DNA of 60,998 nt, counting the filler, from Asterionella formosa (taxonomy: Eukaryota): assembly GCA_002256025.1 (NCBI GenBank). It is 19 parts of 19 records of this genome, joined end to end, with 100 filler letters (N's around TTAATTAATTAA, not from the genome) between each part and the next. Parts side by side here need not be neighbours in the genome. Positions count along the whole stretch, not along the records: positions 41,845 to 44,954 come from NKIB01014468.1; positions 45,055 to 48,164 come from NKIB01014469.1; 17 more parts are not named here. The stretch is one strand, 5' to 3'. The notes beneath the pieces are model-generated. The model saw only the letters and a list, made by a program, of their open reading frames with translations. It ran no database searches and was not told the DNA's origin. The position numbers and the translations under genes are program-made. Below are positions 1 to 57,891 of this stretch, piece by piece (positions within the stretch are counted from its first letter, which is position 1; every line of letters starts with the position of its first letter).

Positions 1-480
1 TACCACAGAATTGACATTTGTCCTCGTCGTTATTGTCACACAGATCCATGATATTTACTGTCGTTGCAGTGCTGTGTTGGCGAGAGAAAAATAAGAATAA
101 CAGGTAGCTAAAATAATGGACCTTGTTCAGCACATATTTGGCAAACAATACTACCTGGTACCATCCTCATCAGTAGACATAATTCCACCAGTGTTGATTT
201 TGAGTAATAATAATCACGTAAAAAAATTGGGTTGCCTACCACTGGCTAGTAGTGCAGTTACCTAGTACCGGTAATAACCTACATAACATGAAAACTGGGA
301 AGAGGGAGCTTTTTTACCGGTAAGTGTGAGTTCTTCATGTGATGTGTACAACCGTAAAACTTTGATCTCAGATGGATGACATTAGACACCGCAAATATCC
401 TTACTATTTCATTAAGTAAAATGCGTGTTGTGAATGTATTAGCCTCAAGAGCAGGATCTTAGTTGAACTTTCAAATGAAT

Positions 481-892
481 TATTTGAAACATCAACTAAT
501 TCAGTCTCGCGTTCAAAATTCATTGTGAAAACTTCACATGAACAAACAGTTAAAACTTCACATGAAACCGTTAAAACTTCACATGATACCGTTAAAACTT
601 AACATGAAACCGTTAAAAGTAACCTTTTTTATGTGATGAGTGGCATTAATGCATGTGAAGTACCACATAATTAACACTCGTACGTATACGAAATTTCGAA
701 AAGTCAAAAGAAATATTTGAAACATCAACTAATTCAGTCTCGCGTTCAAAATTCATTGTGAAAACTTCACATGAAACAGTTAAAACTTCACATGAAACCG
801 TTAAAAGTAATCTTTTTTACGTGAAGAGTGGCATTAATGCATGTGAAGTACCACATAATTAACACTCATACGTAGACGAAATTTCGAAAAGT
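481..892 (+). repeat. Two-copy tandem duplication with nested 21-bp subrepeats
   Basis: TATTTGAAACATCAACTAATTCAGTCTCGCG...GAAATTTCGAAAAGT at 481-704 and 714-892. The internal unit GTTAAAACTTCACATGAAACC occurs about 4 times in copy 1 and about 2 times in copy 2. Confidence 0.9.
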
Positions 893-1173
893 GGCGTATT
901 TCGCGGCTTAGATGTGTAAACAAAAAAGCTACATGACATTGCCGTAGTAGGCAACATAAGGGATCAAAAATCCTATGTATCCATAAAACGAAAAATGGTC
1001 CATGTGAATCTATCATTGTTTTCATCCTGCTCCAACGTAAACATATTGGAGAGCAGGCAAGGGGTTTTCCGTACATGAATTTCGAAGAACTGAAAAAGGA
1101 AGAAGCAAGTCTCACTCTCGCAACTTTGTCTGTACTGTACAGTAATAGCCTTGTACTAGTCTAGTACCTGGTA

Positions 1174-2826
1174 CAATTTAAAAATGGCTTTGAGCCACTT
1201 CGAATGGCTTTGAGTCACTTAACGATATAATATTCAAAATGTATACATAGATTCTTTCCAATTTTCCAGTTATGATTATATTTATTACGACAAAGTTGTT
1301 CCTGATGTTACGTCGGATATAACATATCTAGTTGTTAATTAGGTCTTGTGTTTTAGATAATCAGATAAATGTGTCGGAAAGCAGCAATCAGCCCAAAAGT
1401 GGCAAAAAAAATATTATACCATTTAGCCGGCATCTCCGGGAAATACATGTATACATTTGTCTTGAAAATTTAATATTTAATATATATTTAGTTGCATTTA
1501 ACCGCCATTGACCATGCACTATAGCATTAAATGAGTAAATTCCTCACTCTTAGTAGATGAATGCAATATTTCTTGAATGCCAAAAAATGGAGTCATATTT
1601 TCATGTCAGAGACCGTAATTCACAGCAAAAATTGCTTCCGACATACCAAAAATTGAGACAAATCGCAGTCATCTCATTACCAACGATGAAACCTACAACA
1701 GCAAGAAAACAGCCATTTGTAGAAGCTAAATCAGGCGGGAAAGACAACAAAGTTGTTGGCAGGATATAGCTCATCAATTTCTACCTTGACAAGTGTAAAG
1801 ATCCAACTCATGCACAAAATGCATGAAAGATGTACTCACCCAAAAGGATAGGTGCTATGCTGCATTTGCTGTTGAAAAGGAAGATATTGTTGACCTGGTG
1901 TCGAAAGCATGGGATGAATCCTTTGCCCATATCGCTACGAACCAAAAAGCTGTTGCTGAAAGAGGTTGGGGTCTATTGAACTACAACTTGTTGCTGCTCC
2001 ATCCGGAAATTCAACTGACAAGTACCTCAAATCTGCAGACAGAAGCAAACAATAATCAACCCGCCTCTTCCATTCCCTCATCCAGACTGAACTTGAGTGA
2101 GCCAAGGCATCACCGCAACCCTTGTTGATCAGAAAATACAGTAGTACCGCAATCGTGAGGATGCTAGAAACGGAATAAATCTGGACAAACTTGCCCGCCA
2201 ACAAAAAGAAACAGTATTAATGGCGATTGCAAGAAATAAACAATACTCATCTGGTCTTCATGTCGCTGCAGGCAGGTACTTGTTGGGTCCTGAAGTGGTC
2301 GATGACCAGCTAAAAAGGAAGAAGCATGCGGAAGAAGTGCAGAAGAGTGAGCGAGAGAATCTGAAAATAGATGCGCACATGGCGCTTGCAAACAAAGGTT
2401 ATGCAATCAGATCGCTTAACAAACAGTCAGCTGTGTGGACAGTAGAACAAACGAAAACAATGGCAACGAGGTACAAGCAAGCAGGCAATCGTCCATTACC
2501 AACAACGAAACAACTGCTACTTACTAGATTCAATGACACCATGAGATGCGTGGCGATGCTGCAGCACCAGCGGAGCCACTTCCTCAGCACCCTTTGGTTG
2601 CTCCCATTACATAAAAAGAAGATATGATGGGAGGACCACAAGTCTAAGAATGATGCAACAACTACTGCAAAAAATACGAGGAGAGAGAACCAACAAGCAC
2701 ACCATCAGTCTAAAAACGATGCAACAACTACAAATGAAAGAACATGCAAACGATATAATATTTTCTAACCGTCGCCTATAAAAATAACCACTTGTATGAT
2801 AAAAAATTTATCTATGGCTTTGAGCC
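1174..2826 (+). mobile_element. Non-autonomous pogo-like (Tc1/mariner) deletion derivative, right end truncated
   Basis: Colinear homolog of 52335-54460. Starts TA|CAATTTAAAAATGGCTTTGAGCCAC. ORF remnants (EDIVDLVSKAWDESF...AVAERGWG.LNYNLL.HPEIQLT; AAGRYLLGPEV) match the C-terminus of the transposase at 58900-60998. Confidence 0.85.
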
Positions 2827-3131
2827 AGGCACCAGGGTGACACCAGGGTAACCTGGTGCTCCTAGCAGGTAAAAGCGCCTTCACCAGGTACCAGGTACCG
2901 AGACCTGTGCAATTGTTAAATATACTGTCCCTGCAGAAACAAGCCTTGAAAGAAGGATTTCAAGATTTCTGCCTCTGGGATAAAGCGAAACATAGCCTTC
3001 TTATACCCATGGTAATAACCTTACGGTAAAAAAGCTCAAACCGACAATCTTCATTTCCCGAACCTCCCTTGAGCAATATTGCTTCCGATATTTTGCTGGT
3101 TTGATTAATGCTTTATATTATATTCTTCACA

Positions 3132-3231
3132 NNNNNNNNNNNNNNNNNNNNNNNNNNNNNNNNNNNNNNNNNNNNTTAATTAATTAANNNNNNNNNNNNN
3201 NNNNNNNNNNNNNNNNNNNNNNNNNNNNNNN
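3132..3231. other. Artificial contig spacer (N44-TTAATTAATTAA-N44), first of 18
   Basis: Identical 100-bp spacers start at 3132, 6353, 9573, 12793, 16012, 19230, 22448, 25666, 28884, 32101, 35317, 38531, 41745, 44955, 48165, 51375, 54584 and 57792. The intervening contigs decrease in length from 3131 to 3107 bp. The 12-mer puts stops in all six frames. Confidence 0.99.
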
Positions 3232-4974
3232 AAGAGCTTGAAAAGAAATCCAATGAAAACGAAATGGCTCATCACACAAGACGAAAATTTCCGGCCGGTC
3301 TGTCACCAGAGCATCAATTAGTGTTACAACCTCAATCATAGCTAAACAACATCCATTATAGAACAGCACAATCTACTTCTCCATAACATCGTCTCTCTAA
3401 CAAGAACGTAATACATCTAGAATTGAAACGCAGCATAGCATGGTGCGATATGCACAAAGAAGCATTAGATTGTGCCGTCTATTTATAGTAACAGAGTGAT
3501 TCTGGTTTCGTAATTTTCATGTCTCATTAGATTTTCTTTGTCATCGTTCTAGTTCCTTACCTTTAAAGACAGGAGCGTATTCTTTGATGTATCTGGAATA
3601 TTTCAATGGATGGCAGCAGTTGGATTTAGACACAGACCTCAACAAAAGCACTAGTACCTTGTAGATGTTCATGAAAAGCGAGACACTTTGCTTGGCCTAT
3701 CGAACACCAGCCAGTCTATACTGCAAAAATGCAAGAAGCAAGCACAAGTTGAATGCCCATTTATGGATTCAAGTTTCAGTAGTAGTGCAACAAAGTAAAA
3801 TATTAGAAACCGGAAGTCACATTTCATCTAATTACGGTTTTCATTAGCTATACTAGTATTGATTGAGAGGAAGCAATGGTAGAATGGCTGCCAAACAGGC
3901 GGGGGCAAACACAGAGAATCCTACTAATTTTTCTTCCCAATGATCCCAGTCCCTTCTTGAATGTCACTTGCTTGCTACAGAAAATGTAGAACAGCCGCCA
4001 TGATCTGTTGATTGTTGCTTGCTGTATGGTGCCCCTGACCAAAACCTCCAGAAATCTCAATGAGTTGCTTGTTTCTTGACTTGAATGCAAAAGGGATCGA
4101 AACCAGTGGAAAAATCAAAAGGAAACTAAAAATGCTCTGCAAACATTAGGACAATTGTGAAAGAGAAATGAAGGTTCTTGGGAGGAGAAGTAAAGGGATA
4201 ATTGCTTCTGGTCTCCTTGCGGGAACAAGAATAGATTGACCCAAACATTGTTGACAAATAGGTACCTACGGGAAAAGGAAGCAATGATTTCGGCATCATC
4301 AATCTAGCTATACACAAGCCTGCGACACCTGACATCAATATAGCTACCTCGACTTCATCAATGAAGAAGTCAATGGGTGGAGCATGTGAGGAAAATCGAG
4401 GTTGAGGTTTTCTTGACGCCAACGTGGACCTGCTTGGCTGAACTCCTTGCAGATGAAGGCATTGAGTAACCTGGGCCTGTGAAGCCAAAGGAAAAAGAAA
4501 AATCTATGACAAGGGTGCGTTGTGAGATAGTGTTTAGGAGGGGGGAGCAAAAGTTATCATAGCTGAACGCATTCGAAACTTGTATAGACAATAGATGATG
4601 GCATGCCATGGCTGCTCTTGGCTGACAGCTGCCAAGTCAAGTACAAACACAATGAGGGTGCACAAAAGACAGTCCAATTTTAATCGACTGGCTGTTACTT
4701 AGTTGTGAGACTCACCATTCTGCAATGGGGTGGACTTTGATCATTGCTTTGTTCAAAGCACATTCAATTCGAATGCTGTCCAGTGAAACAGCCAGCAATG
4801 AAAACAATTGTGGTGGCGAAAAAGGGCAGAACAGATAAGAGATTTCATAGGAATTAAAATAACAGGGCATATATGATGCACTGCTCCTTGTGTAGACTAG
4901 TAGCTATATTTGATCATGTCCATATTTCATACTGTACAGGTGCATGGATGACTCCTCCCGCCCTTTCGTTAGAT

Positions 4975-5160: not shown

Positions 5161-6535
5161 GTTGCATGCATACCTGAGCAACGACTACTCCGGTATAAAC
5201 TATGATCTTTACTCGATGATTCTTGATTCGTTTATCCTATAACTTTGATCATAAAATATTGATCATATGATGAACGGTGTCGTTGTAGAGAAAATGAATG
5301 ATCAACATTTATTTTCAAGAATCAGGATTAATTGATCTTAAAAGTATGATCAAATGATCCTATACACATGAGCACATTCAGTTTTTCGCTGCACTATTGT
5401 GGTATTTCCATGATGGAAGTAATTACCAGCAATTATACAGTACTACCGGTAGGCCATATGAATTTTGGTCAATATGTCTATATACATAGATGTATGATTT
5501 CGACCATTTGAAAAATTTGTGATGACTCCCGTTTATTAAGGGGCTTATTTAAATCAGCCACTGACTTGTAGGTACAAGAATTGACACAACACTAATTGAA
5601 AAAACTCAACAGGTTGTGGAAAACTATGAACTCATCATGCATTGTACTATATATTTGAATTATGTATAATCAAAATTGATATTAGTATACACAGGATGTG
5701 CCGTGACCATATAATGAGCGTGTTTAAAACTATGCAAATGTTCAACTATATATACATTTAAACTTCTTACAAATCTTTATATGTATATATATTCATGGCT
5801 GAAACATTTGAAATCATGTTTTCATGCATACACTTTGCTCCTGAAAAGAAGGATAAACACAGATGATGACGCGGAAAACGAAAGTGATAATACAGCACAA
5901 TGATACTTGCGGCTTAGAAGAGAAGGGCGGAATCAATTGATGGTAAGGCAAGAGCAAATGCCTTTCATGTTCCTTGTCATGCTGCATACACTTCCTGAAA
6001 TGAAGGATCTCAAGCAACACATGATGAGAAAAACTGAAGTGACAATACAGCACGATAAGAATGAGTGAATATGATGGAGAAGGGCGGAATCAACAAGCTG
6101 TGCATAGCATCACGGTTTGTCAAGAGCAAATGCCAAGATGATCAATTGCTGATGGGATTACAAATACGGAATGACTCGTCCCCTTTCAGTGATTCAATAG
6201 CTCCTTTTCGATTTGGTGGCTGGCCAATCATCCATGTGGACAAAAGAAATCGGTAAGTGCTGCCTATCAGCCATCTTTGGATCAATCTACAACTGTTAGA
6301 AAAACTGACACATATGTGTTGCTTCTTTCAGGATAATGGTAGACAAACAGTANNNNNNNNNNNNNNNNNNNNNNNNNNNNNNNNNNNNNNNNNNNNTTAA
6401 TTAATTAANNNNNNNNNNNNNNNNNNNNNNNNNNNNNNNNNNNNNNNNNNNNACAAGCGGACAATTGAGAGTCCGGAGACAAGATCTGAGGGTACCAGAC
6501 CATCCAGAGTCTGAAGAAGTCGCACAAGGCGCATC

Positions 6536-9672: not shown

Positions 9673-12600
9673 CCCGAGAACACACGTGCCAGAAACCCAA
9701 CCCCCAGTCAACCCGCTGGTAGCCCTGAGACCAGTGCCATGACCTTCACACAACGAGGAGCGACCGCCGGCATCAACGGAGTGACACATGACGACGTCAT
9801 ATGTTACAACTGCCAGAACATTGGGCACTATGCAAGCGACTGCCCTGAGACACAAGGAACGACGAACACTGGCACAACATTGGTGCAACATGCGTACATG
9901 CTTGCCCAACCAAATGAGACAAATATCGACCCTTACTGGATACTTCTGGACTCGCAATCCACAATCTCTGTGTTCAAGAACCCGCAAATGCTACAGAACA
10001 TTAGAAGCAGTCCACATGTACTCCGCGCACTGACAAATGGGGGACACCAGGATTCCAACATGATTGGTGACTTCCCAAACCTTGGACAGGTGTGGTACAA
10101 CCCCGATTCCATTGCCAACATTTTGTCACTTGCCGATGTGCGCAAAGTATGCAAGGTATCCATGGATACATCTAAGGAACCAACCATATTTGTACACCGA
10201 CTTGACGGATCGGTCATGAAGTTTATTGAACACCCTTCCGGACTCTATATTTTCAACCCTAACGCTACTAGTAACTGTGTCAACGCGTACACCATGGTCT
10301 ACACAGTAGCACAACAAAAAACAATGTTTTCGCATCGGGAAATCAAATTGGCCAATGAAGCTAGGGATCTTTACAGAAAAAATGGGCGGCCTGATGAGAT
10401 CGAGTTCCAATCGATCCTCAGAAAGAACCTCATTCGGAACTGTCCGGTGACACCAGACGATGCCAAATGAGCACTCCTTATCTATGGCCCCGACATTGCT
10501 GTCCTCAAAGGAAAAATGACCCGGTCCAAAGCTACACCACGCGCTCCAACCTTCATTGCCGTGCCCATACCAGCACCCATCCTGAAGCATCACCACAACA
10601 TTACACTGTGTGTAGATTTCTTTTTGTACAAGGGCTCATATTCCACCACACGATATCACGTGGAATTGGTTTCCGGACTGTAAGTCCGGTCCCAGACCGC
10701 CGGTCTTCCACCATCCTTCGTGAAACTCAAGCCGCCAAACACATGAATCAATCACGCGGTTTAACAGTATGCGATATACATGCAGATAATGAATTCGATT
10801 GCATTCGTGAAGACATCCGCCCTATCGAAATGAACATCGTGCCCACAGACAGTCATGTTGGCGAAATCGAACGCTCTATTTGCACCATTAAGGAGCGCCT
10901 CCGTGCTTGCGTTCACGGGCTACCTTTCAAGCGCCTGCCAAAACTAATGATAACCCACATGGTCGCCGATGTTGTGCGATGTTTGAACCAATTCCCACAC
11001 AAGAATGGGGTTTCAGATACGCTGAGCCCAGCTTGTATCATCACTGGTGCTGCCAACCCCGACTACAACAACATGCGACTAGAATTTGGCTCATACGTAC
11101 AAGTATTCGAAGACAACGACCCCTCAAACACCCCACGTTCCCAATCTTTAGGGGCCATATCTCTCAACCCCACCGGCAACGCGCAAGGCGACTACTATTT
11201 CATGTCACTTGCCACCGGAGCAAAGATTTCCAGACACCAATGGACCCTGCTATCCATCACTGACACCGCCATTGCCCGCATCGAGGCCATTGCTCTACAC
11301 GATGGGCAACAACCCATACAGGAGCGTGGTCTTGTTGCTGAATGGCGCCCCAACCAGGCCATTGACGATGATGAATATGACCGCGACTACACTGAGCCTG
11401 GCAATACACCGACTGAAGACGATCATTTTGAGGCCGACATTTTAGCACCCATCGACGAAGAAGAAATCGCCGATCTGCTTGCCAATGCCTCCGAGCCTGA
11501 GAAAGATGGAGTGGACCAAGAAGCGCACATCGTGATTGAGGGAAATGAGACGGAACCTCATGTTCTTGTTGGTGATGGTATCGAAACTGAAGAATGTGAT
11601 GACACAAACTTCGACCAAGGCAACCTAGGAGCCCTGGACTTCGAACACGAAGAAGAAGACGAACTCGACGAAGAAAGCGAATACGAAGAAGACATCACCA
11701 ACCACGAAAATGTAGGATACGAACAAGGAGAACAGGTGGTAGTTGTAGGAGCGCAACGTGAAGAAGGCGGCAACGACCACAACACCCGAACATACAACCT
11801 TCGGGATCGTGGAGGCAATAAGGCCGCCCAATCATTTGAGGAGGCCATGGACAACCCACATAACAGTAAGTCCTACTACCCGCCAATGCAGTTCATACAG
11901 CACGGAGCCATGGGCACGAGATCACCTTTGAGCGACGAGAGCATAAGGGCCCTCGTTTTTGGGCATATCATGACGCAGATGACGGCAAAAGCAGGGATAA
12001 AGAAACACGGAAGGGTAGCCGAGGAAGCACTGATGGCGGAGTTTGCACGGTTGGAGGATCTGAATGCGTACGGGTCCATAAATCCATTGTCCCTGACCAA
12101 AGAACAAAAAAAGGGCGCCCTTAGGGCGATCAACCTGATCAAAGAGAAACGAGATGGACGACTTAAAGGGCGAACTGTAGCAGATGGACGAACACAGCGC
12201 ACATTGTATGACAAGTCTGAGACTGCATCACCAACAGTGTCCACCGATGCACTCATGCTGTCTATAATTGTGGACGCGCATGAAGGAAGGGACGTGGCCA
12301 CCGCAGACGTGACGGGGGCATGCCTGAAGGCAGACATGGACGATTTCGTGGTGATGAAGTTCATGGACAATTCAGTTGACATACTGTGTGAGATGAACCC
12401 ACTGCACAAGAGGTTCGTAGCTGTGGAAAAAGGTATTAAGGTGCTCTATGTCCGGTTAGTGAAAGCGATTTACGGATGTGTAAAATCGGCTCTGCTCTGG
12501 TACGATCTGTTTAACAACACCCTAAACGAAATGGGTTTTGTAATTAATCCCTATGACCCATGCATCGCGAACTGTATAATTGATGGAAGTCAGTGTACAA

Positions 12601-12792
12601 TTGCATGGTACGTTGACGACAACAAGATTTCCCATGTGGAACCTGCAGTAGTAACCATGATCATAAAAAAAATCGAGAAACGTTTCGACAAAATGACAGT
12701 GACCAGAGGGAAGGAACATGTGTTTCTAGGAATGAACATACGATACACTAATGAACGCACCGCTGTAATCACGATGAACGTGTACCTTAAAG
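9673..12792 (+). mobile_element. Ty1/copia (CoDi-like) pol: knuckle, protease, integrase, RT; disrupted copy A
   Basis: CYNCQNIGHYASDC, WILLDSQST, HADNEF...HVGEIER, RT DVATADVTGA and WYVDD. TGA at 10468-10470 and a 1-nt frameshift near 10620 relative to the copy at 54684-57791. Confidence 0.95.
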
Positions 12793-12892
12793 NNNNNNNN
12801 NNNNNNNNNNNNNNNNNNNNNNNNNNNNNNNNNNNNTTAATTAATTAANNNNNNNNNNNNNNNNNNNNNNNNNNNNNNNNNNNNNNNNNNNN

Positions 12893-14108
12893 TTATCCAC
12901 TCAGCCAAGACGGTTCTGGCATCTATCCCGGTCGATCTCCAGGCGGTTCACATCAAAAGCCATCAAGATGACAGTAAACCCTATGAAGCCTTAACTCTGC
13001 CTGCAAAACTCAAAATCCAAGTTGATGGACTCACTCATTTAGCCTATCTCCGCTGCCCCCAGAGCTCCATTACTCCGCTTTCCCCTCAAGTCCCCGCAAC
13101 CCTCATTTTTCAGGGATCTCAAGTTACCTCTCAGATGATCCCTACAACTCTGCAAGCGTACTATAAGCCCAAACAATTCACGTACTTCCAAACACAACAC
13201 GGATGGACGCAGTCAATCTCTGACTCTACTGACTGGAAGTCTTCCACCAGCGCATACAAACACTTGTCAAACGGACGCAAACTAGCAATGTTTAAGTTAA
13301 TAAATGGACAATGGCCCACCAACAAAATCTTACATCGCCATGGCAAAGCCCCGGCTTCCTTATGCCCACGCTGCTCCAATGCTGTTGAGGACCACAATCA
13401 CGTCCTCACCTGCCCAGCTTCTTGCCACTTTTGGGATACAAAGTGGACCACTCTCTCTGACCATCTGAAATCCAAACTTTGCACTCCTCCCCATATTCTC
13501 CTTGCCCTAACCCATGGTATCCAATCGTGGGAAAATGGTGACGTTCCCCCACTTGGCCTCTTCCAGATCCCTCCCCAACCGAACCTCTTCTTTGGACGAC
13601 CTATCAGGCATATGTCCAACAAACAGCTATAGGATGGAACCACCTCCTAAGGGGAAATCTATCAGTCTCTTGGGCTCATGCCATGACAACCTATCACTCC
13701 ATCAGACATCCAGACCAACGCTATGAATCCTCCCTTTGGACACGTCAACTAATCAACTCCTTACGCGCCTATGCCATGGAACAGTGGAATAATCGCAATG
13801 ATTTTGTCTATGGCGCCATTCTCCTTGCCACTAATGCACGCCGACTCACATTGCTTCGAACACAGACAATTACAGCTTACTCAAACCAGATCTCTGTCCC
13901 AGCTGATGAACGAGGACATATGTTTGGCCTTCCTCTCTCTCAACGCTTACTTCATTCCCACTCGGCACTGACGGCCTGGCTGGCAATCTATCGTGTGGGT
14001 CAACTAAGCCTCACATCCCAAATACGTCAAGACAAACGCCGCCAGGGCACAATTCGAAAATTTCTTATCCGTCGCGCAAACCCTCGCCGTCCCTCTTCAC
14101 CCATCTAA
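12893..14108 (+). mobile_element. 3' end of a non-LTR retrotransposon ORF (RNase H C-terminus plus CCHC zinc finger; Ambal-like), disrupted
   Basis: HIKSHQDD...VDGL (end of RNase H), DWKS...FKLINGQWPTN...CPRCSNAVEDHNHVLTC, and W..RNDFVYG. Frameshifted; the ORF ends at 14108. Confidence 0.75.
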
Positions 14109-18229: not shown

Positions 18230-19229
18230 TGGTGAAGTATCTAACTAGAAGTAGTAGTATTCATTGAATATATGAGCTAATTAATTTTATGTACAACTTG
18301 TTTTCCCAAGTTGACATCAAAATATACAACAGGTGTTAGTCGAGTTCTGATATATTTGAGATAACCCTAACCCGATATATATCTGTATCAATGTGCAGGA
18401 TCGCTCACTCTCCCACACTTGAGGGAAAACCTTTTACCTATGAAAAGGTTTGATACAACAAATATTAATTCGTTCTGTAATATGCATAGTGCGTTGAAAA
18501 GTAACTGTACCATTGGCATGTACTTGAATAATAGTATAAGGACCTCGTCCACGATCATCCAAAGTAATAAGATTATCCAAAAGTATTAAAATCTCATCAC
18601 CCACTTTGTAATCATAAGATCGGCGACGAAAATTAACGCGACGTAAGCGTTCGTCGATTATAACCTGTCGACGTTGATGTATCAATTGTAAATCTGTAAT
18701 CAAAGGAATATTTAAAATCATATCACGTTGAAAAACCCATGCACCTGGTGAAATACGTAATATACTATGAATAGTAGTTCGAGCTGCATATGATGCAGTT
18801 GCAAAACACGTATCCACAATATTTTGGGCTTGAAATTCATTCATCGGAGGATGAGCCTTTAACATAACTCGTAGACTATTACTGATAGATTGATGTAAAC
18901 ATTCACAGATAGCATTTGCTTGTGTATTCTTGACTGTAGTAGTCACATCTTTAATTCCATTCAACACCAACATGTGTAAGAAAGGAGCACCAGTAAATTC
19001 ACCTCCATTGTCATGTATACAACGTTCTGGACGGGGATATCTGGCTAACCAATCATTTTCAAATTTCATTGCAATATATTCTGATGTTTTGTTATTGATA
19101 CATGAAATTTCTGCCAAATTGGTGACTGTATCAATACAAGTTAGAGCACGAAATTCAATTACTTGAGTTGCCACTGTTATCTTCCATGGACCAATTCAAT
19201 CTACTGCGACTTCTGACCATGGTAATAAC
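18230..19229 (-). mobile_element. Ty3/gypsy 3' end: integrase (18434-19229), polypurine tract and 3' LTR (~18230-18407)
   Basis: GPW...ALTCIDTVTNL...WLARYPRPERCIHDNGGEF...QANAICE...RINICCIKPF, then GTGTGGGAGAG|TGAGCG. The LTR ends ...GTTAGATACTTCA(CCA); boundaries are supported by the related copy at 31457-31710. Confidence 0.9.
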
Positions 19230-22547: not shown

Positions 22548-23903
22548 ACGGATGACCCTACTATTCTGCTATCGAGCTCTGGTGCTTCACCTGATCTCCA
22601 GCCTGAACTGAAAAAAGCCAAGATAGAAATCAGCCCTTCAATCTCAAATCAATTTGACGCGCCACCAGCACCTAGTAACATCACGTCTTCTGCTCCCTTA
22701 AGTACTAGTAGCATTGGGATGTCAAGCTACGACCAGAAAATAGCTGCAGCAGGAGGTATCACTACGATTCTGTTTGCAATGAAGACTCATTCCTCCAATG
22801 CTACTGTGCAACAAAATGGTTGTGCAGCACTTCAGAACTTGGCTTATAATAATGACAACAACAGAGTGACAATTGCTGATGCAGGAGGTATCACTACGAT
22901 TCTGTCTGCAATGATGACTCATTTCTCAAATGCTACTGTGCAATACTATGGTTGTGGAGCACTTGCGAACTTGGCTTTTAAAAATAACAACAACAAGGTG
23001 ACAATTGCTGAAGCAGGAGGTATCACTAAGATTCTGTATGCAATGAAGACTCATTCCTCCAATGCTACTGTGCAAGAAAATGGTTGTGCAGCACTTAGGA
23101 ACTTGGCTTTTAATGAAAACAACAAGGTGACGATTGCTGAAGCAGGAGGTATCACTACGATTCTGTCTGCAATGAAGACTCATTCCTCCAATGCTACTGT
23201 GCAAGAAAATGGTTGTGCAGCACTTCTGTGCTTGGCTTATCCTAATAAAAAGAACCAGGAAACGATTGCTGAAGCAGGAGGTATCACTACGATTCTGTCT
23301 GCAATGAAGATTCATTCCTCCAATGCTACTGTGCAAGAAAATGGTTGTGGAGCACTTCAGAACTTGGCTTGGAATAATGACAAGAACCAGGTAACAATTG
23401 CTGACGCAGGAGGTATCATTACGATTCTGTCTGCAATGAAGACTCATTCCTCCAATGCTACTGTGCAAGAGTGTGGTTGTGGAGCACTTGATAACTTGGC
23501 TGAGAATAATGAAAACAACAAGGTGGCAATTGCTGATGAAGGAGGTATCCCTCTGATTTTGTCAGCTATGAATAATTATTCCTCCAATGCTAATGTACAA
23601 CTCCAAGGTTGTGCAGCATTTTGGAACTTGGCTGACAATAATGAAAACAACAAGGTGACGATTGCTGATGCAGGAGGTATTCCTTCAATTCTGTCTGCGA
23701 TGAGGACTCATTCCTCCAATGCTAGGGTTCAAGAGCATGGTTGTGGAGCACTTTGGAAATTGGCTTTGAATAATGGCAGCAACAAGGTGACGATATCTGA
23801 TGCTGGTGGAAAAGCCCTAATTGAGTCTGCTATGCGAAATTACTCGTCCAATGCTGGTGTTCAAGAAAAAGGTAATGGAGCACTTTGCAATTTGTGGAAA
23901 TGA
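22548..23903 (+). CDS. Armadillo-repeat protein, 9 repeats of 44 aa (one of 43), 5' partial
   Basis: The frame is open from the contig start at 22548 through the listed ORF 22719-23903. Consensus KVTIAEAGGITTILSAMKTHSSNATVQENGC.AL.NLA.NN.NN with a 132-bp DNA period. Confidence 0.9.
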   Translation, partial: TDDPTILLSSSGASPDLQPELKKAKIEISPSISNQFDAPPAPSNITSSAPLSTSSIGMSSYDQKIAAAGGITTILFAMKTHSSNATVQQNGCAALQNLAYNNDNNRVTIADAGGITTILSAMMTHFSNATVQYYGCGALANLAFKNNNNKVTIAEAGGITKILYAMKTHSSNATVQENGCAALRNLAFNENNKVTIAEAGGITTILSAMKTHSSNATVQENGCAALLCLAYPNKKNQETIAEAGGITTILSAMKIHSSNATVQENGCGALQNLAWNNDKNQVTIADAGGIITILSAMKTHSSNATVQECGCGALDNLAENNENNKVAIADEGGIPLILSAMNNYSSNANVQLQGCAAFWNLADNNENNKVTIADAGGIPSILSAMRTHSSNARVQEHGCGALWKLALNNGSNKVTISDAGGKALIESAMRNYSSNAGVQEKGNGALCNLWK

Positions 23904-33791: not shown

Positions 33792-33967
33792 TACACCCCT
33801 ACTTTGTCCGAAGACTGTATTTAAGCATATGGAAAGGGTGTGTATTGGTGAAAGCTCCGTTGAGCGTTATACATTTTTAATTTGAATGTGAAAAGTATGT
33901 GTTTGATTAGTCTGACTGAATATTTTTTTTAAACCCTACCTCGAGCTAGGGGTTCAAATGCAGCAAC

Positions 33968-34444
33968 CTTAATGCCGTGTCTTTCAGTAACCCAGCCTAC
34001 GCGCCCAAATTGCTTGTATAACTTGTAGGGCCTTCTTGGATTCATTTCGCCATAGAACATGTCGTCGGGACTTCTTTTAGTTACTGAGTTAACTGTACTA
34101 TTTGTTAAACATGTACCTGTATGTACCGCCTCTGCCCATAATAGCCCTTGGTACTCATCTGTTAGTTTTGCACTTAGCATCATTGATAGTGCCCTCTGTT
34201 GCACAATGACAAAACCGCGTTCCACTACACCATTGTGTTGTGGAGTGTGCGGGGCAGTAAATTCCATTTTTATACCGCGATTTTCACATACCTTTCTCAA
34301 TTGTTTAGTATTCTCGCCTGCGTCATCGCAACGGACATACTTTGTCTTGTGACCGGCTCTGGCTAAACTTAATAGTAAAGCTTCAATGACTGTTCTGATA
34401 TCGTTCTTCTTTTTAATGAAATAGCTCCAGGGCTTTCTTGTGTA
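33968..34444 (-). mobile_element. Copia integrase core fragment
   Basis: YTRKPWSYF...RCDDAGEN...EFTAPHTPQHNGVVERGF...LWAEAV. Confidence 0.88.
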
Positions 34445-34569
34445 CCGGTACTATACTATCATGTATACCGGTACTGGTAGTAGTATCATGTATCGTATCT
34501 CGTATCAAGTAACAAAAAACAAAAAAAATTATACATGAGTGCACTAGTAACAGTGCCTCTAAAAATAAA

Positions 34570-41744: not shown

Positions 41745-42567
41745 NNNNNNNNNNNNNNNNNNNNNNNNNNNNNNNNNNNNNNNNNNNNTTAATTAATTAA
41801 NNNNNNNNNNNNNNNNNNNNNNNNNNNNNNNNNNNNNNNNNNNNACAAGTATGGGTACATAATAATTATCGTAATAACTACTATAATTTTTGCATGCACA
41901 TTCATTATCACATTTATTGCTCATTTGCACATTCTTGGTTGCATCCTCTTCCCTTCGTGCTCACCATCATGATGCCAGATGTCCCTCTTCATCCTCATGG
42001 CATTCCTTTACAGGAATTCAATGAGAAAATGATGATGGAAAGGGTACATGCTGGGCATACATTTCTGACAGTTTGGCCTCTTTTTGCTGGTGTCTTGAAC
42101 ACAAACCAGGATGACTTACAGCATATGCCCAGAACAAAGGGTGATTCTTCCCGAGACAGAGGCAGCAAGCATAGGTACAAGGGAAGAAAAAAATCGAGTT
42201 AGAAAGGGGTTTAGTTGAATTGATTCAGCATGCTGCAGAGGAAGCCATCATGGCATGATGCTCTCTGCAATCACTCACTCCAGCAGGGTATATGGTATAT
42301 CTCCAGAGCCTTCGCCATTCTTGGACACAAGATTGGCTGTCAAAGAGCTGGTATGGGAATAAGTGATCAGATCTATTCAACTTATTCAGGCTACATTACT
42401 ACACACCAGGCTTCACAGTTGATTTTGAGCAGGAACTTAGCAACCTTTTGCATGGTTTTTATCAGATTATTGCAGTAAAGAATCATTATGGCTTAGGAGA
42501 GATTTTTGAGGGTAAGGACCCCATGAACAATCAACATATCACCTCCTTTGTACTTGGTTCATTGAGT

Positions 42568-42799
42568 CAAAAGTTACTTAAATTTTTATAGTATGTTAAA
42601 GCTATCCAATAATCGCACTTGTGCCCGCTTAAATGGTAACAATTAGTACCAGTTTTATTCATCCGTATGGTACAACAGTACCTGTCTCTTTGTCAGCCTC
42701 ACCCCTGGAACCCTAGGGACTACATAAAAAAACAGGTGGAGAATGCAGGAATCAAACCCGCTACCTCATAAGGTGTGCTAAGCAATTAAGCCATTCCCC
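42568..42799 (-). mobile_element. tRNA-Ala-headed retroposon (SINE or pre-tRNA/LINE chimera) with 17-bp TSD
   Basis: Flanked by TACTTGGTTCATTGAGT at 42551-42567 and 42800-42816. The 5' end is exactly tRNA position 1. Removing the insert and one repeat restores the Crypton frame LLCTWFIELGTGDGIW. Confidence 0.85.
42737..42799 (-). pseudogene. tRNA-Ala(AGC)-derived sequence, D arm largely deleted
   Basis: GGGGAAT...GCTTAGCAC...GAGGTAGCGGGTTTGATTCCTGCATTCTCCA. Acceptor stem GGGGAAT/ATTCTCC with G3:U70, AGC anticodon, B-box-like GGTTTGATTCC; only 63 nt. Confidence 0.85.
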
Positions 42800-45700
42800 T
42801 ACTTGGTTCATTGAGTTAGGAACTGGTGATGGCATTTGGGGTAATCTAGCTATTCATGGCCTTTACTTGGAATTTGATTTGCAGGGTCAATAACACAAGC
42901 CAAATCTGCTTGTCACATATGGAGTGGACTGATGATGCTCTGCGTAAGTACTTTGCAAACACTAAGACAGATCAGAAAGGGACTCAATCAAAATATTCCT
43001 GACATATTTATGCAAATCCAATTGAGTGGGTAGTGTATCCTATATTTTATCTTGGTGTATACTAGGGAAGGTTTAAATAATGTTGCTAAAGGAAATAGTT
43101 GCTTATTCCCTGGTCACAATCAGTTTAAGAGATTTTCATCTATTTTAAAGCAGAAGCCAAGAAAGGACAGCTATTTGAATAAGGTATTGAATCAAACAAC
43201 ATCAGCATGCACAGTATAAGGAAGAAGGGGGCTGCTACTTATATTAGTGCCTGCCCAGGGGGAACTTCATCAGGTTCTATCAGTGTAAATGGTGGGTGGT
43301 TAATGGGCAGAGTCAAGGACATTGATGTCCAGTGGTATGAGCATTTGTGGGGAGTCCTTATGTGCTCTACCCATGTTACTTGCATGATTCTCTTCCTCTC
43401 CCCCTATGTTTTTAAAATCTGAAACTTATGGTAATAAAACCAAAGCTGCAGTGTTTCCAATGATGCTCCTATGTATGAACCAGTTGATGTACTACCCAGT
43501 ATATCAGCGTGCAGGAGGTACCTGGTACCTGGTACCAGGTACCTCCTGGTAAAGTATTTGCACAGGGCGGTATTTGTTGTAGTCACGTGATCATTTTCGT
43601 ATTCTATCGCCTATTACATGCTAGAGTGATAGTAACAGCCAAAGCAAAAGCATCATTTGCACAGCTATATGTCGTAGTAGTCACGTGATCATTTTCGTAT
43701 TCTATTGCTTAGTTCTTCGTGGTGAGTTGCCCCTGGTATACATACCTGGTACCAGGTTACAGGTAATGTACCATATCACCATGCTCCTTGAACATAATAT
43801 ATATACCGGGAACGTAGTCGTAAAAAATTAAACTCCCAGTTAAACCCGTAGTCGAAGCTAGCACTAGTAGTTTACTAGTACTAGAGTACAGTGCACAAAG
43901 CCAGCGACAATACCAGTTCTGGTACCAGGTGCCAGTACCAGGTACCTAGTACCGGCGCCCATTTGCTCCTATCGACTGGTTAGCAGGGTACCAGGTACCG
44001 TACCAGGGTACGTGTATGCGGGAATAGACCATTTTATGTATTTAGAGATTTAGAGTACCTGGTACTTAATATGGAGTCACCACGAGTACATATACTATAG
44101 CACTATATTACAGTAAATAGAGGACCAAGTCTATTATTGGTAGGTGTGTATATGTCTAATATACATATACCCGAAATGAAATGAAAACAATCAATATATA
44201 GCTAATGAAAAATAGTGAAAAAATAATGTAGCTACAGTAGTATGAAATCATGCATCTGTGTAATAATAGCCTAAATACATACTAGCTGTGTATGACCACC
44301 AGCGTGATGATCAGCAGATATCAATTGATTGGCAATCTAATCTGTGGCATTGTTCTATCTGGAATATATACCTCATACATTTTGTCAATTTGCAATGTGG
44401 CAGTGAAAAGAACACAGCTCAAAGTAGGGCAGTCATCATATCCCACACACAACGCTTTGCCAACCAACAATACTCCACCATTCTTACTATATCCTGCTCA
44501 ACCCTTGTAAAATTTTCAGCAACCTTACAAACCTAATTCCAACTTTTTGCATTCCTACCAAAGAGCAAATAGTTTTTGGTGTAACAGAAAGACTACAATA
44601 CTGACAGAATTGCTTCCTCCCTCCTACCTCTTTGACACACATCCTGCATCATTTCTGTTGGTTCATCAACTTGTTAATTGTTGAAAACTTCTTCAAACAC
44701 CACATTTGAGGCATTTCTGGACTCTCAATCATCATTCTGCATACTTGTCACTCCTGCTACCACCAATAACTAGTAGTCAGGAGTCAAAACTCCTTCAAGA
44801 CGAGAGTCGACTGGCTGATGTCATCTACCTTAGTTTCAAAACTAGGCGACATTGCATCTCGATCTTCTGGGAGTACATCCTAAGTATATAGTTCCAAAAA
44901 CAAACTGGCAGCTCATACTTCCCTCCTTCACCTGCTGTTGGTGTCCCAGCCATCNNNNNNNNNNNNNNNNNNNNNNNNNNNNNNNNNNNNNNNNNNNNTT
45001 AATTAATTAANNNNNNNNNNNNNNNNNNNNNNNNNNNNNNNNNNNNNNNNNNNNTAGAGTGATATTCTGTTTTAGTCGGAGAATTTCTATTTTCGTTTCC
45101 TATGTCTAGGTCCCAGGTACTTTGAATTCAAGAAGCAAGTACAGCGTGGTGTATGCTTTTGATCGATATTTTTGGAATTCATCGAACCTATGATATGGAT
45201 ACTTGAAACTGCTGCACAACCATGACACATCATAAAATTATTTTGAAATTACAAAGACAATCAATGGCAACCAGTGAAACTGAGAGGATTACACTGTAGA
45301 ATTTCTCAGTTTCAGTCTTAAACAGAAATGCATCATTTTGTGAGGTTGAGAAAAAAACTCAAATAACTTGAACATGCCATGAATCCATGTTAGGTCCAAT
45401 AGATTCGACTTCTTAGTGCTGATTTCAATCTACTTACAAGCGTGGATTTGCCCATCCAGTTTTTCTCTGTGTATGTAGTATCTTTTAGTGAAATTCTGAC
45501 TGATGCTGATAGTTTGCCCATCACCAGCATCAATCCCAGCATTTATGATTCTTGGGGAAAGAACAAAAATCGCAAGCTTCTTTTACCCCCTACCAGTTTT
45601 CTCTAAATGAGGATACTAGATCAATTAAGTTTACAATAAGCTGTCAATGCTTTTCCACCTCCCAAAGAAAGAAGATGTTCTAAGTATCTGTAAATTCAAC

Positions 45701-54683: not shown

Positions 54684-57600
54684 CCCGAGAACACACGTGC
54701 CAGAAACCCAACCCCCAGTCAACCCGCTGGTAGCCCTGAGACCAGTGCCATGACCTTCACACAACGAGGAGCGACCGCCGGCATCAACGGAGTGACACAT
54801 GACGACGTCACATGTTACAACTGCCAGAACATTGGGCACTATGCAAGCGACTGCCCTGAGACACAAGGAACGACGAACACTGGCACAACATTGGTGCAAC
54901 ATGCGTACATGCTTGCCCAAGCAAATGAGACAAATATCGACCCTAACTGGATACTTCTGGACTCGCAATCCACAATATCTGTGTTCAAGAACCCGCAAAT
55001 GCTACAGAACATTAGAAGCAGTCCACATGTACTCCGCGCACTGACAAATGGGGGACATCAGGATTCCAACATGATTGGTGACTTCCCAAACCTTGGACAG
55101 GTGTGGTACAACCCCGATTCCATTGCCAACATTTTGTCACTTGCCGATGTGCGCAAAGTATGCAAGGTATCCATGGATACATCTAAGGAACCAACCATAT
55201 TTGTACACCGACTTGACGGATCGGTCATGAAGTTTATTGAACACCCTTCCGGACTCTATATTTTCAACCCTAACACTACTAGTAACTGTGTCAACGCGTA
55301 CACCATGGTCTACACAGTAGCACAACAAAAAAAAATGTTTTCGCATCGGGAAATCAAATTGGCTGATGACGCTAGGGATCTGTACAGAAAAATTGGGCGG
55401 CCTGATGAGATCGAGTTCCAATCGATCCTCAGAAAGAACCTCATTCGGAACTGTCCGGTGACACCAGACGATGCCAAACGAGCACTCCTTATCTATGGCC
55501 CCGACATTGCTGTCCTCAAAGGAAAAATGACCCGGTCCGAAGCTACACCACGCGCTCCAACCTTCATTGCCGTGCCAATACCAGCACCCATACTGAAGCA
55601 TCACCACAACATTACACTGTGTGTGGATTTCTTTTTTGTGCAAGGGCTCATATTCCACCACACGATATCACGTGGAATTGGTTTCCGGACCGTAAGCCCG
55701 GTCCCAGACCGCCGGTCTTCCACCATCCTTCGTGAAACTCAAGCCGCCATACACATGTATCAATCACGCGGTTTAACAGTATGCGATATACATGCAGATA
55801 ATGAATTCGATTGCATTCGTGAAGACATTCGCCCTATCCAAATGAACATCGTGCCCACAGACAGTCATGTTGGAGAAATCGAACGCTCTATTCGCACCAT
55901 TAAGGAGCGCCTCCGTGCTTGCGTTCACGGGCTACCTTTCAAGCGCCTGCCAAAACTAATGATAACCCACATGGTCGCCGATGTTGTGCGATGTTTGAAC
56001 CAATTCCCACACAAGAATGGGGTTTCAGATACGCTGAGCCCAGCTTGTATCATCACTGGTGCTGCCAACCCCGACTACAACAACATGCGACTAGAATTTG
56101 GCTCATACGTACAAGTATTCGAAGACAATGACCCCTCAAACACCCCACGTTCCCGATCTTTAGGGGCCATATCTCTCAACCCCACCGGCAACGCGCAAGG
56201 CGACTACTATTTCATGTCACTTGCCACCGGAGCCAAGATTTCCAGACACCAATGGACCCTGCTACCCATCACTGACACCGCCATCGCCCGCGTCGAGGCC
56301 ATTGCCCTACACGATGGACAGCAACCCATACAGGAGCGTGGTCTTGTTGTTGAATGGCGCCCCAACCAGGCCATTGACGATGATGAATATGACCGCGACT
56401 ACACTGAGCCTGGCAATACACCGACTGAAGACGATCCTTTTGAGGCCGACATTTTCGCACCCATCGACGAAGAAGAAATCGCCGATCTGCTTGCCAATGC
56501 CTCCGAGCCTGAGGAAGATGCAGTGGACCAAGAAGCGCACATCGTGATTGAGGGAAATGAGACCGAACCTCATGTTCTCGTTGGTGATGGTCTCGAAACT
56601 GAAGAATGTGACGACACAAACAACCTAGGAGCCCTGGACATCGAACACGAAGAAGAAGACGAACTCGACGAAGAAAGCGAATACGAAGAAGACATCACCA
56701 ACCACGAAAATGTAGGATACGAACAAGGAGAACAGGTGGTAGTTGTAGGAGCGCAACGCGAAGAAGGCGGCAACGACCACAACACCCAAACATACAACCT
56801 TCGGGATCGTGGAGGCAATAAGGCCGCCCAATCATTTGAGGAGGCCATGGACAACCCACATAACAGTAAGTCCTACTACCCGCCAATGCAGTTCATACAG
56901 CACGAAGCCATGGGCACGAGATCACCTTTGAGCGACGAGAGCATAAGGGCCCTCGTTTTTGGGCATATCATGATGCAGATGACGGCAAAAGCAGGGATAA
57001 AGAAACACGGAAGGGTAGCCGAGGAAGCACTGATGGCGGAGTTTGCACAGTTGGAGGATCTGAATGTGTACGAGTCCATAAATCCGTTGTCCCTGACCAA
57101 AGAACAAAAAAAGGGCGCCCTTAGGGCGATTAACCTGATCAAAGAGAAACGAGATGGACGACTTAAAGGGCGAACTGTAGCAGATGGACGAACACAGCGC
57201 ACGTTGTATGATAAGTCTGAGACTGCATCACCAACAGTGTCCACCGATGCACTCATGCTGTCTATAATTGTGGACGCGCATGAAGGAAGGGACGTGGCCA
57301 CCGCAGACGTGACGGGGGCATACCTGAAGGCAGACATGGACGATTTCGTGGTAATGAAGTTCATGGACGATTCAGTTGACATACTGTGTGAGATGAACCC
57401 ACTGCACAAGAGGTTCATAGCTGTGGAAAAAGGTATTAAGGTGCTCTATGTCCGGTTAGTGAAAGCGATTTACGGATGTGTAAAATCGGCTCTGCTCTGG
57501 TACGATCTGTTTAACAACACCCTAAACGAAATGGGTTTTGTACTTAATCCCTATGACCCATGCATCGCGAACTGTATAATTGATGGAAGTCAGTGTACAA

Positions 57601-57791
57601 TTGCATGGTACGTTGACGACAACAAGATTTCCCATGTTGAACCTGCAGTAGTAACCATGATCATAAAAAAATCGAGAAACGTTTTGACAAAATGACAGTG
57701 ACCAGAGGGAAGGAACATGTGTTTCTAGGAATGAACATACGATACACTAATGAACGCACCGCTGTAATCACGATGAAGGAGTACCTTAAAG
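54684..57791 (+). mobile_element. Ty1/copia (CoDi-like) pol, near-intact copy B
   Basis: 981-aa ORF with knuckle, protease LDSQS, integrase CVDFF/HADNEF/EIER and RT WYVDD. A7 instead of A8 near 57665-57671 frameshifts the RT end. Same contig start and end as 9673-12792. Confidence 0.96.
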
Positions 57792-57891
57792 NNNNNNNNN
57801 NNNNNNNNNNNNNNNNNNNNNNNNNNNNNNNNNNNTTAATTAATTAANNNNNNNNNNNNNNNNNNNNNNNNNNNNNNNNNNNNNNNNNNNN

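Follow-up and report, generated by a model that had tools for sequence, protein, structure and literature searches.

We describe a short repeat in a 60,998-nucleotide (nt) stretch of DNA from the Asterionella formosa assembly GCA_002256025.1, the whole of which we call the window. The sequence at 42568-42799 on the minus strand is very probably an old, promoter-damaged copy of a multi-copy short interspersed element (SINE) of a pennate diatom, derived from a tRNA and inserted in a tyrosine-recombinase (Crypton-like) transposon, with the composite of the two later amplified. The element is an ordinary kind of repeat, a tRNA-derived SINE, in a group in which SINEs have barely been described.

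The insert is 232 nt long and is bounded by an exact 17-bp direct repeat, TACTTGGTTCATTGAGT, one copy of which (42551-42567) adjoins the 3' end of the element and the other (42800-42816) its 5' end. Read on the minus strand of 42400-42960, ACTCAATGAACCAAGTA is present twice, in copies 232 nt apart. A repeat search of 42300-43100 returned this 17-nt pair as the sole direct repeat of at least 10 nt and found no inverted repeats; by simple arithmetic, the chance expectation for such a pair in that interval is about 1e-5. The minus-strand insert begins with GGGGAATGG, and after this acceptor start come a B-box-like GGTTTGATTCC, then A, CC and TG (CCACCTG), a run of seven T (T7; 42726-42732), a body unrelated to tRNA, and an AT-rich 3' end that closes with CTTTTG. 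No open reading frame (ORF) of at least 60 amino acids (aa) wholly within the insert was listed, and 232 nt is too short for an ORF of 90 aa. Like a SINE, the insert is short, non-coding and devoid of terminal inverted repeats. A preliminary description of this DNA had given the same coordinates, 17-bp duplication, start at G1 and anatomy, all of which the exact repeat pair and the minus-strand reading bear out.

Metagenome contigs were scanned with a 22-nt head pattern, which returned eight loci (L001-L008), five of them with the tRNA-like head of the element (L003, L004, L005, L007 and L008). Identity to the window copy was calculated over 224-247 nt and is highest in L004 (90.6%), the 5' side of which runs off its contig. 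Two of the copies are full-length and have unrelated flanks, L005 (82.2% over 247 nt) and L007 (79.9% over 224 nt); the latter lies between 13-nt repeats that match at 11 of 13 letters, and the flanking repeat of L005 is degraded. The marine contig L003 carries at 1230-1479 (250 nt) the same tRNA-derived head joined to a different body of ~185 nt, with no T-run after the head and with an 11-nt flanking repeat (10 of 11 letters matching). Target-site duplications are variable in length across these loci, at 17/17 matching letters in the window, 11/13 in L007 and 10/11 in L003. The junction of head, linker and body is the same in all five copies with the window-type body (window, L004, L005, L007 and L008). 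In L008 (125-348), a GAT-rich microsatellite stands in place of the first ~30 nt of the head, and a 285-nt deletion covers the 3' end of the element together with the adjoining flank of the SINE-recombinase composite. The other three loci, L001, L002 and L006, share only the 22-nt head pattern, gave no tRNA by ARAGORN or Rfam, and were set aside as unrelated; L001 is identical in sequence to L002, which lies within a 100-kb contig. Scans of genome-contig and viral-contig collections with the head pattern gave no matches.

The abundance of the element was assessed using the 801-nt stretch 42300-43100 as a query, which is partly present in 20 runs among the matches listed, mostly freshwater or lake metagenomes. 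Contigs of four runs, here X1, X2, X14 and X15, were aligned to it at a likeness of at least 85%, yielding 3,736, 558, 14 and 235 contigs, respectively. Summed contig depths, which are not equivalent to copy numbers, peak inside the element in all four runs, at 42597-42623 and 42732-42758. The two peaks reach 865,440 and 751,768 in X1, compared with 33,000-152,000 in the left flank, and 8,093 and 9,186 in X2, compared with 260-863; element depth is 2-9 times flank depth in the four runs. Contigs also come loose from the query at two places. At 42781, loose ends occur in 25 (X1), 17 (X2), 1 (X14) and 8 (X15) contigs, which continue as CCACTAAGCCATTCCCC, up to ...GCCATTCCCC, and then into unlike sequence. 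Since the contigs diverge after CCACTAAGCCATTCCCC, the copies share a common 5' end at GGGG. The second set of loose ends falls before 42584/42586 in 72, 47, 2 and 17 contigs of the same runs; these show a run of seven to nine A on the plus strand followed by unlike flanks, and their divergence past this run shows that the copies also have a 3' end in common, at a T7-T9 run of the element strand. All four runs (14 to 3,736 contigs per run) therefore contain many dispersed copies sharing both ends, as expected of a SINE. The proposal in the preliminary description that the insert belongs to a SINE family is upheld by L005 and L007, in which the same head-body junction recurs with different flanks and duplications, and by the abundant contig pieces with sharp ends in each run.

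The head of the window copy (42737-42799, minus strand) comprises an acceptor stem, a D arm, a truncated anticodon arm, a T arm and a discriminator A. In the acceptor stem, GGGGAAT is paired with ATTCTCC, and G3 faces T70. The Rfam tRNA model (RF00005) aligns to the head over model positions 1-71 with 23.4 bits (E 0.026), which is below the gathering score of 29 bits. The heads of L004 and L005, with the same truncated arrangement, score 30.0 and 28.3 bits, so that of the three only L004 passes. At the gathering threshold Rfam gave no match in the whole window, and ARAGORN predicted no tRNA in the window or in the eight metagenome loci. In the Rfam alignment the D arm is GCUUAAUUGCUUAGC, and 5 unshown positions take the place of 13 in the anticodon arm. 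Minimum free energy folds of five heads are cloverleaf-like, with the anticodon arm replaced by a 4-bp stem and a 4-nt loop. Truncation of this arm in all five heads leaves no anticodon and no complete cloverleaf with a 7-nt anticodon loop. Judged from these alignments and folds, the head is tRNA-derived but not a tRNA. The letters AGC, previously taken for an anticodon, form the 3' half of the D stem in the Rfam alignment. G3:U70 is the Ala identity pair of tRNA, and it is kept in all four heads with an intact 5' end (window, L003, L004 and L005). Its retention supports descent from tRNA-Ala and not function. The earlier assignment to tRNA-Ala thus keeps its G3:U70 pair and B-box-like motif and loses its anticodon, and it is by G3:U70 that we judge the head to be probably descended from tRNA-Ala.

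Both internal promoter boxes were compared between copies and judged against the consensus of A and B boxes. The B box (42748-42758, minus strand) reads GGTTTGATTCC in the window copy. At position 42754 the majority letter differs from that copy, accounting for 495,929 of 658,202 depth units in X1 (102 contigs); C occupies the position in all four other heads, and the majority restores GGTTCGATTCC. The A-box region (42782-42793, minus strand), at the 5' end and next to the loose ends at 42781 in all four runs, is degenerate in the window copy, with TGGCTTAATTGC against TGGCTTAGTGG or TGGCTTAATGG in other copies of the head alignment. A small-RNA-derived head with internal A and B boxes, in the family majority TGGCTTAGTGG and GGTTCGATTCC, is a further SINE hallmark. 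With both boxes mutated, the window copy is very probably silent.

The T7 run directly after the head, to which the preliminary description had drawn attention, is present in the window copy (42726-42732, minus strand) but is not a family feature. The majority letter at 42731 differs from the window copy in X1 (291,838 of 351,141 depth units, 92 contigs) and in X2 (4,163 of 4,985), so that by contig majority most copies have TC+T5 where the window copy has T7; aligned copies have T6, T5-C-T4 or an interrupted run at this place. From these comparisons, the T7 is a copy-specific C-to-T change within a TC+T5 stretch. The 3' tail of the family is a T7-T9 run on the element strand (T8 in L005), of which the window copy (tail region 42568-42585, minus strand, with T4 then G) and L004 retain only T4. 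Poly(T) is given among the normal tails of SINEs (PMC8825457). The terminal T7-T9 run is compatible with a terminator of RNA polymerase III (Pol III); this resemblance suggests that the 3' end of the element is where a Pol III transcript naturally stops. Within the body, contig joints often skip from 42619/42626 to 42701-42726, which indicates that the middle differs between subfamilies. Among the depth bins, that at 42597-42623 ranks first in X1 and X14 and second in X2 and X15, and the 3' block of the body (42586-42626, minus strand) is conserved in the alignment of the window copy, L004, L005 and L007. We regard this block as a candidate recognition region for a reverse transcriptase.

The sequence on either side of the SINE is repetitive in its own right, of high depth and with numerous variant contigs. 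Translated, the plus strand yields ...WNLICRVNNT..., ...KTDQKG... and HSIRKKGAATY...GGW...Y, interrupted by several stops. With a 79-residue piece as the query, HMMER retrieved 52 relatives, many of them 350-1,100 aa long; those to which the window pieces align are 350-870 aa in length, and the alignment of relatives keeps KTDQxG, HSIRKG, GW and Y. Neither the window pieces nor the relatives belonged to any Pfam family, and a sequence-profile search of the PDB gave no significant recombinase match. An AlphaFold model of one relative, P0254 (mean pLDDT 69.6), matches Cre, XerH, the Tn1549 integrase and Flp (best E 1.3e-4, probability 1.00), so that the identification as a tyrosine recombinase comes from this fold comparison and not from sequence search. 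Pfam found a reverse-transcriptase domain in none of 22 recombinase relatives, and a tyrosine recombinase without a reverse transcriptase is what characterizes Cryptons. The host repeat occurs in many copies and has no recognisable protein apart from a tyrosine recombinase, and thus fits the label Crypton-like, which agrees with the Crypton host named in the preliminary description. CryptonS elements of stramenopiles, which have TATGG-type terminal direct repeats, share these properties; the window copy differs in being decayed and on a 3.1-kb contig, and the likeness is judged by coding content and multiplicity. Cryptons have been reported from P. tricornutum and oomycetes (PMC3212892).

The position of the insert within the recombinase was determined using tblastn, in which all matches fell in frame 1. 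Residues 92-182 of P0254 align to 42190-42477 and residues 214-396 to 42820-43335, and residues 95-236 of a second relative, P0276, align to 42037-42474. The decayed coding remnant thus extends over 42037-42550 (plus strand) on the N-terminal side of the insertion and over 42817-43549 (plus strand), including the HSIRKKGAATY...GGW...Y region, on the C-terminal side. The 31 residues of P0254 missing between its two matches correspond to 93 nt, which is the 342-nt gap in the window minus 249 nt (232 + 17), and removal of the insert with one repeat therefore restores colinearity and frame. To that extent the earlier statement that removal restores the Crypton frame holds, but the reading frame so restored is not intact: a TAG lies in frame after the repeat, at 42817-42819, and together with the other stops it marks the host copy as decayed or dead. 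An intron starting at the insertion site was considered as an explanation of the TAG at 42817 and was dropped, since the alignments of protein relatives continue uninterrupted across 42820-42852.

In one X1 contig, 21 letters separate 42533 from 42800; they match 42534-42550 except for one mismatch and a small indel. Read in this way, the contig represents a diverged paralog that has the 17-mer once and lacks the insert, i.e., an empty site, which lends support to the retroposition that the preliminary description had envisaged. Other contigs carry the insertion within the same host. The alignment of L004 to the window extends from 42801 down to 42044, with 91.8% identity (element part, 90.6%), and both L004 and L008 share the window's arrangement of element and flank. 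X2 and X14 contain diverged contigs bridging either junction (records 27, 31 and 16), X14 also has one contig identical to the window (record 9), and the L004-type letter at junction base 42568 is found in 38 X1 contigs. The divergence of ~8-9% between carriers indicates that the insertion is old. These contigs argue that the SINE and the recombinase repeat were amplified as a unit after insertion; the carriers may be paralogs of one genome or, in part, orthologs in related species.

Four segments make up a full-length element: a head of ~65 nt, descended from a tRNA (probably tRNA-Ala), that contains the A and B boxes and has a shortened anticodon arm; a short T-rich linker; a body of ~150 nt, variable between subfamilies in its middle and conserved in its 3' block; and a terminal run of 7-9 T. 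In the mechanism that we infer, Pol III would start at or beside G1 from the internal promoter, pass the weak internal T5, presumably by leaky termination at short runs, and stop at the terminal T-run. An autonomous retroelement, probably of the long interspersed nuclear element (LINE) type, would then supply the reverse transcriptase and endonuclease that turn the SINE RNA into DNA at a staggered break in the chromosome. This process, target-primed reverse transcription, would yield target-site duplications of variable length (11-17 bp here). The window copy would have entered the coding region of the tyrosine-recombinase (Crypton-like) transposon in this manner, and the composite subsequently multiplied. 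Target-primed retroposition of a Pol III-type RNA is compatible with the variable 11-17-nt duplications, the start at tRNA position 1, the terminator-like end and the lack of inverted repeats.

Other origins were weighed against this account. The preliminary description had offered as its alternative a pre-tRNA fused to a LINE 3' end, as in U6/L1 chimeras. It would be a one-off retrocopy, the pre-tRNA with its T-run trailer having become attached to a LINE transcript's 3' end through template switching. U6/L1 chimeras likewise have a small Pol III RNA at the 5' end, unrelated sequence and a long flanking duplication, and the T7 directly after the head of the window copy and a body unrelated to tRNA would suit this origin. 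U6/L1 chimeras are unique events with individual junctions. The element, in contrast, has one head-linker-body junction common to many dispersed copies, namely L004, L005, L007, L008 and hundreds of contigs; L005 and L007 each lie in different flanks between duplications of their own, and the T7 is a copy-specific variant of TC+T5. We reject the chimera on these grounds as very improbable. A working tRNA-Ala or tRNA-like gene with its terminator, the rest being ordinary flank, would account for the G3:U70 acceptor stem, the B box, the T-run directly after the head and the L004 head that reaches the Rfam gathering score (30.0 vs 29). Against such a gene, ARAGORN found no tRNA in the window or the eight loci, truncation of the anticodon arm has removed the anticodon from 5/5 heads, and the head always travels with a body between duplications, all of which makes this explanation highly unlikely.

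Two further possibilities concern DNA transposons. A miniature (MITE-like) cut-and-paste element, or another such element with a tRNA-like end, would also be short, non-coding, multi-copy and flanked by direct repeats, as this one is. We give it little credence, since 42300-43100 contains no inverted repeats, the duplications measure 17, 13 and 11 nt where DNA transposons have a fixed length, and the element begins exactly at tRNA position 1 and ends in a T-run. The insert might instead be an internal part of the recombinase transposon, with the 17-bp repeat a local duplication. Most contigs covering the junction do carry the insert (in X1, 38 contigs with the L004-type letter at 42568 vs one empty-site contig), and L004 and L008 share the junction. 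This is nevertheless extremely unlikely: L005, L007 and the loose ends place the element outside the recombinase repeat in unrelated flanks, recombinase relatives run across the site without an insert (their 31-residue gap equals the window gap minus 249 nt), and an empty-site paralog exists.

A retroposed, multi-copy SINE remains the explanation that we prefer, and several observations weigh against it. Only one empty-site contig was seen. The read evidence consists of contigs of metagenome-type runs, which come without a per-genome copy number and could mix related species. X15 is an RNA-library run and has element-containing contigs, with an element-to-flank depth ratio like that of the DNA runs; contigs of this kind cannot reveal transcription, ends or strand. 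No second copy was found in the ~59 kb of contigs in the window using 28-33-mers with up to three mismatches, blastn with a word size of 7, or an nhmmer profile of four copies, and a metagenome scan with a 22-nt pattern from the 3' block gave no matches. The T5 directly after the head (T7 in the window copy) should hinder synthesis of a full-length Pol III RNA. In the predicted secondary structure of the body, none of 37 pairs has compensatory changes across four copies. Finally, none of the 74 window ORFs scanned has an RVT_1 or AP-endonuclease domain, and no LINE or other non-LTR (long terminal repeat) reverse transcriptase was found among them.

Among known systems, the closest is the SINE2/tRNA class, especially plant SINEs with T-run tails, which are likewise short and non-coding, with a tRNA-related head bearing A and B boxes, a body and a simple tail, 10-20-nt target-site duplications, multiple copies and no inverted repeats. 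The element departs from that class in its diatom host, in the loss of most of the anticodon arm and in the T5 linker after the head; this comparison is one of structure. SINEs were formerly thought absent from most unicellular species, as noted in one of two diatom reports (PMC5859163, PMC7466962). Putative SINEs in the same host group, and of the same nominal class, have been listed in P. tricornutum Phatr3, where 13 'putative SINE' copies (1,454 bp) were called the first in a diatom (PMC5859163), in Cyclotella cryptica v2, with roles described as poorly understood (PMC7466962), and in Pleurosigma pacificum, alongside LINE/Ambal (PMC12803021). As presented in the relevant sections of those reports, with which we compare by description only, these come from automatic repeat annotation without structure, ends or duplications; the present element has a defined head, ends, duplications, an empty site and a measure of abundance. 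The SINEs related to tRNA in the oomycete Phytophthora infestans, infSINE among them, as described (PMC3429519), belong to another stramenopile lineage and a different host class, and here too the comparison is by description only. A literature text search for a 20-mer of the head gave no match, and no paper was retrieved by a search for literature on a freshwater-diatom genome with a SINE and retrotransposons. Repbase, Dfam or SINEBase may already contain the family.

A broader reading, which we advance only tentatively and hold to be rather less probable than its negation, is that diatoms here yield their first high-copy SINE superfamily with a defined structure. In that event a truncated, tRNA-Ala-derived head would be shared by at least two families with different bodies (the freshwater family and the marine L003), with its own T7-T9 terminator tail and with passenger spread in a recombinase transposon. 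An oligo(U)-ended RNA would then be the template for reverse transcription. If this holds, and if the elements are absent from Repbase, Dfam and SINEBase, they would offer a tractable SINE system for diatom biology, with the partner retroelement still to find. A family for which ends, duplications and an empty site are defined, and which abounds in lake metagenomes, would in itself show that retroposition of Pol III-type RNAs operates, or formerly operated, in pennate diatoms, would give a marker system for strain and population work, and would point to a reverse-transcriptase partner yet to be identified. For repeat annotation, the SINE-in-recombinase composite is a warning, as the SINE has been amplified both alone and as a passenger. 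The general picture of SINE biology is unchanged by the finding.

The window itself is a chain of 19 contigs of ~3.11 kb separated by 18 spacers of N44, TTAATTAATTAA and N44 (3132-3231, 6353-6452, ... 57792-57891). The steps between spacers fall from 3,221 to 3,208 nt, and the steady drop in piece length is that of contigs sorted by size. Adjacency in such a chain says nothing about linkage, and genes elsewhere in the window are not linked to the SINE, whose own contig spans 41845-44954 (3,110 nt). Two separate contigs contain Copia-type polyproteins (zf-CCHC + RVT_2) at 9673-13629 and 54684-57692 (both plus strand), which begin with the same 20-mer after the spacer. Their best named relatives are from Fragilaria crotonensis and Fistulifera solaris, with identities of 51-69% and 48-51%, respectively, for one of the polyproteins. 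This similarity, which is that of a transposon and not of a housekeeping gene, makes a pennate diatom origin of the window likely, in keeping with the diatom origin assumed in the preliminary description. A zf-RVT match at 12895-13629 (plus strand), 3' of the RVT_2 region of the first Copia polyprotein, scores 25.7 bits against a cut-off of 27.5 and may be spurious. An armadillo-repeat ORF at 22548-23900 (plus strand) has no close named relative, its best named match being a cryptophyte protein (35% identity), and some metagenome proteins are 87-97% identical to it over short parts; as a guide to the taxon this gene was uninformative. Weak integrase-core (rve) matches at 18437-19195 and 33932-34450 (both minus strand), on two further contigs, are probably retrotransposon debris.

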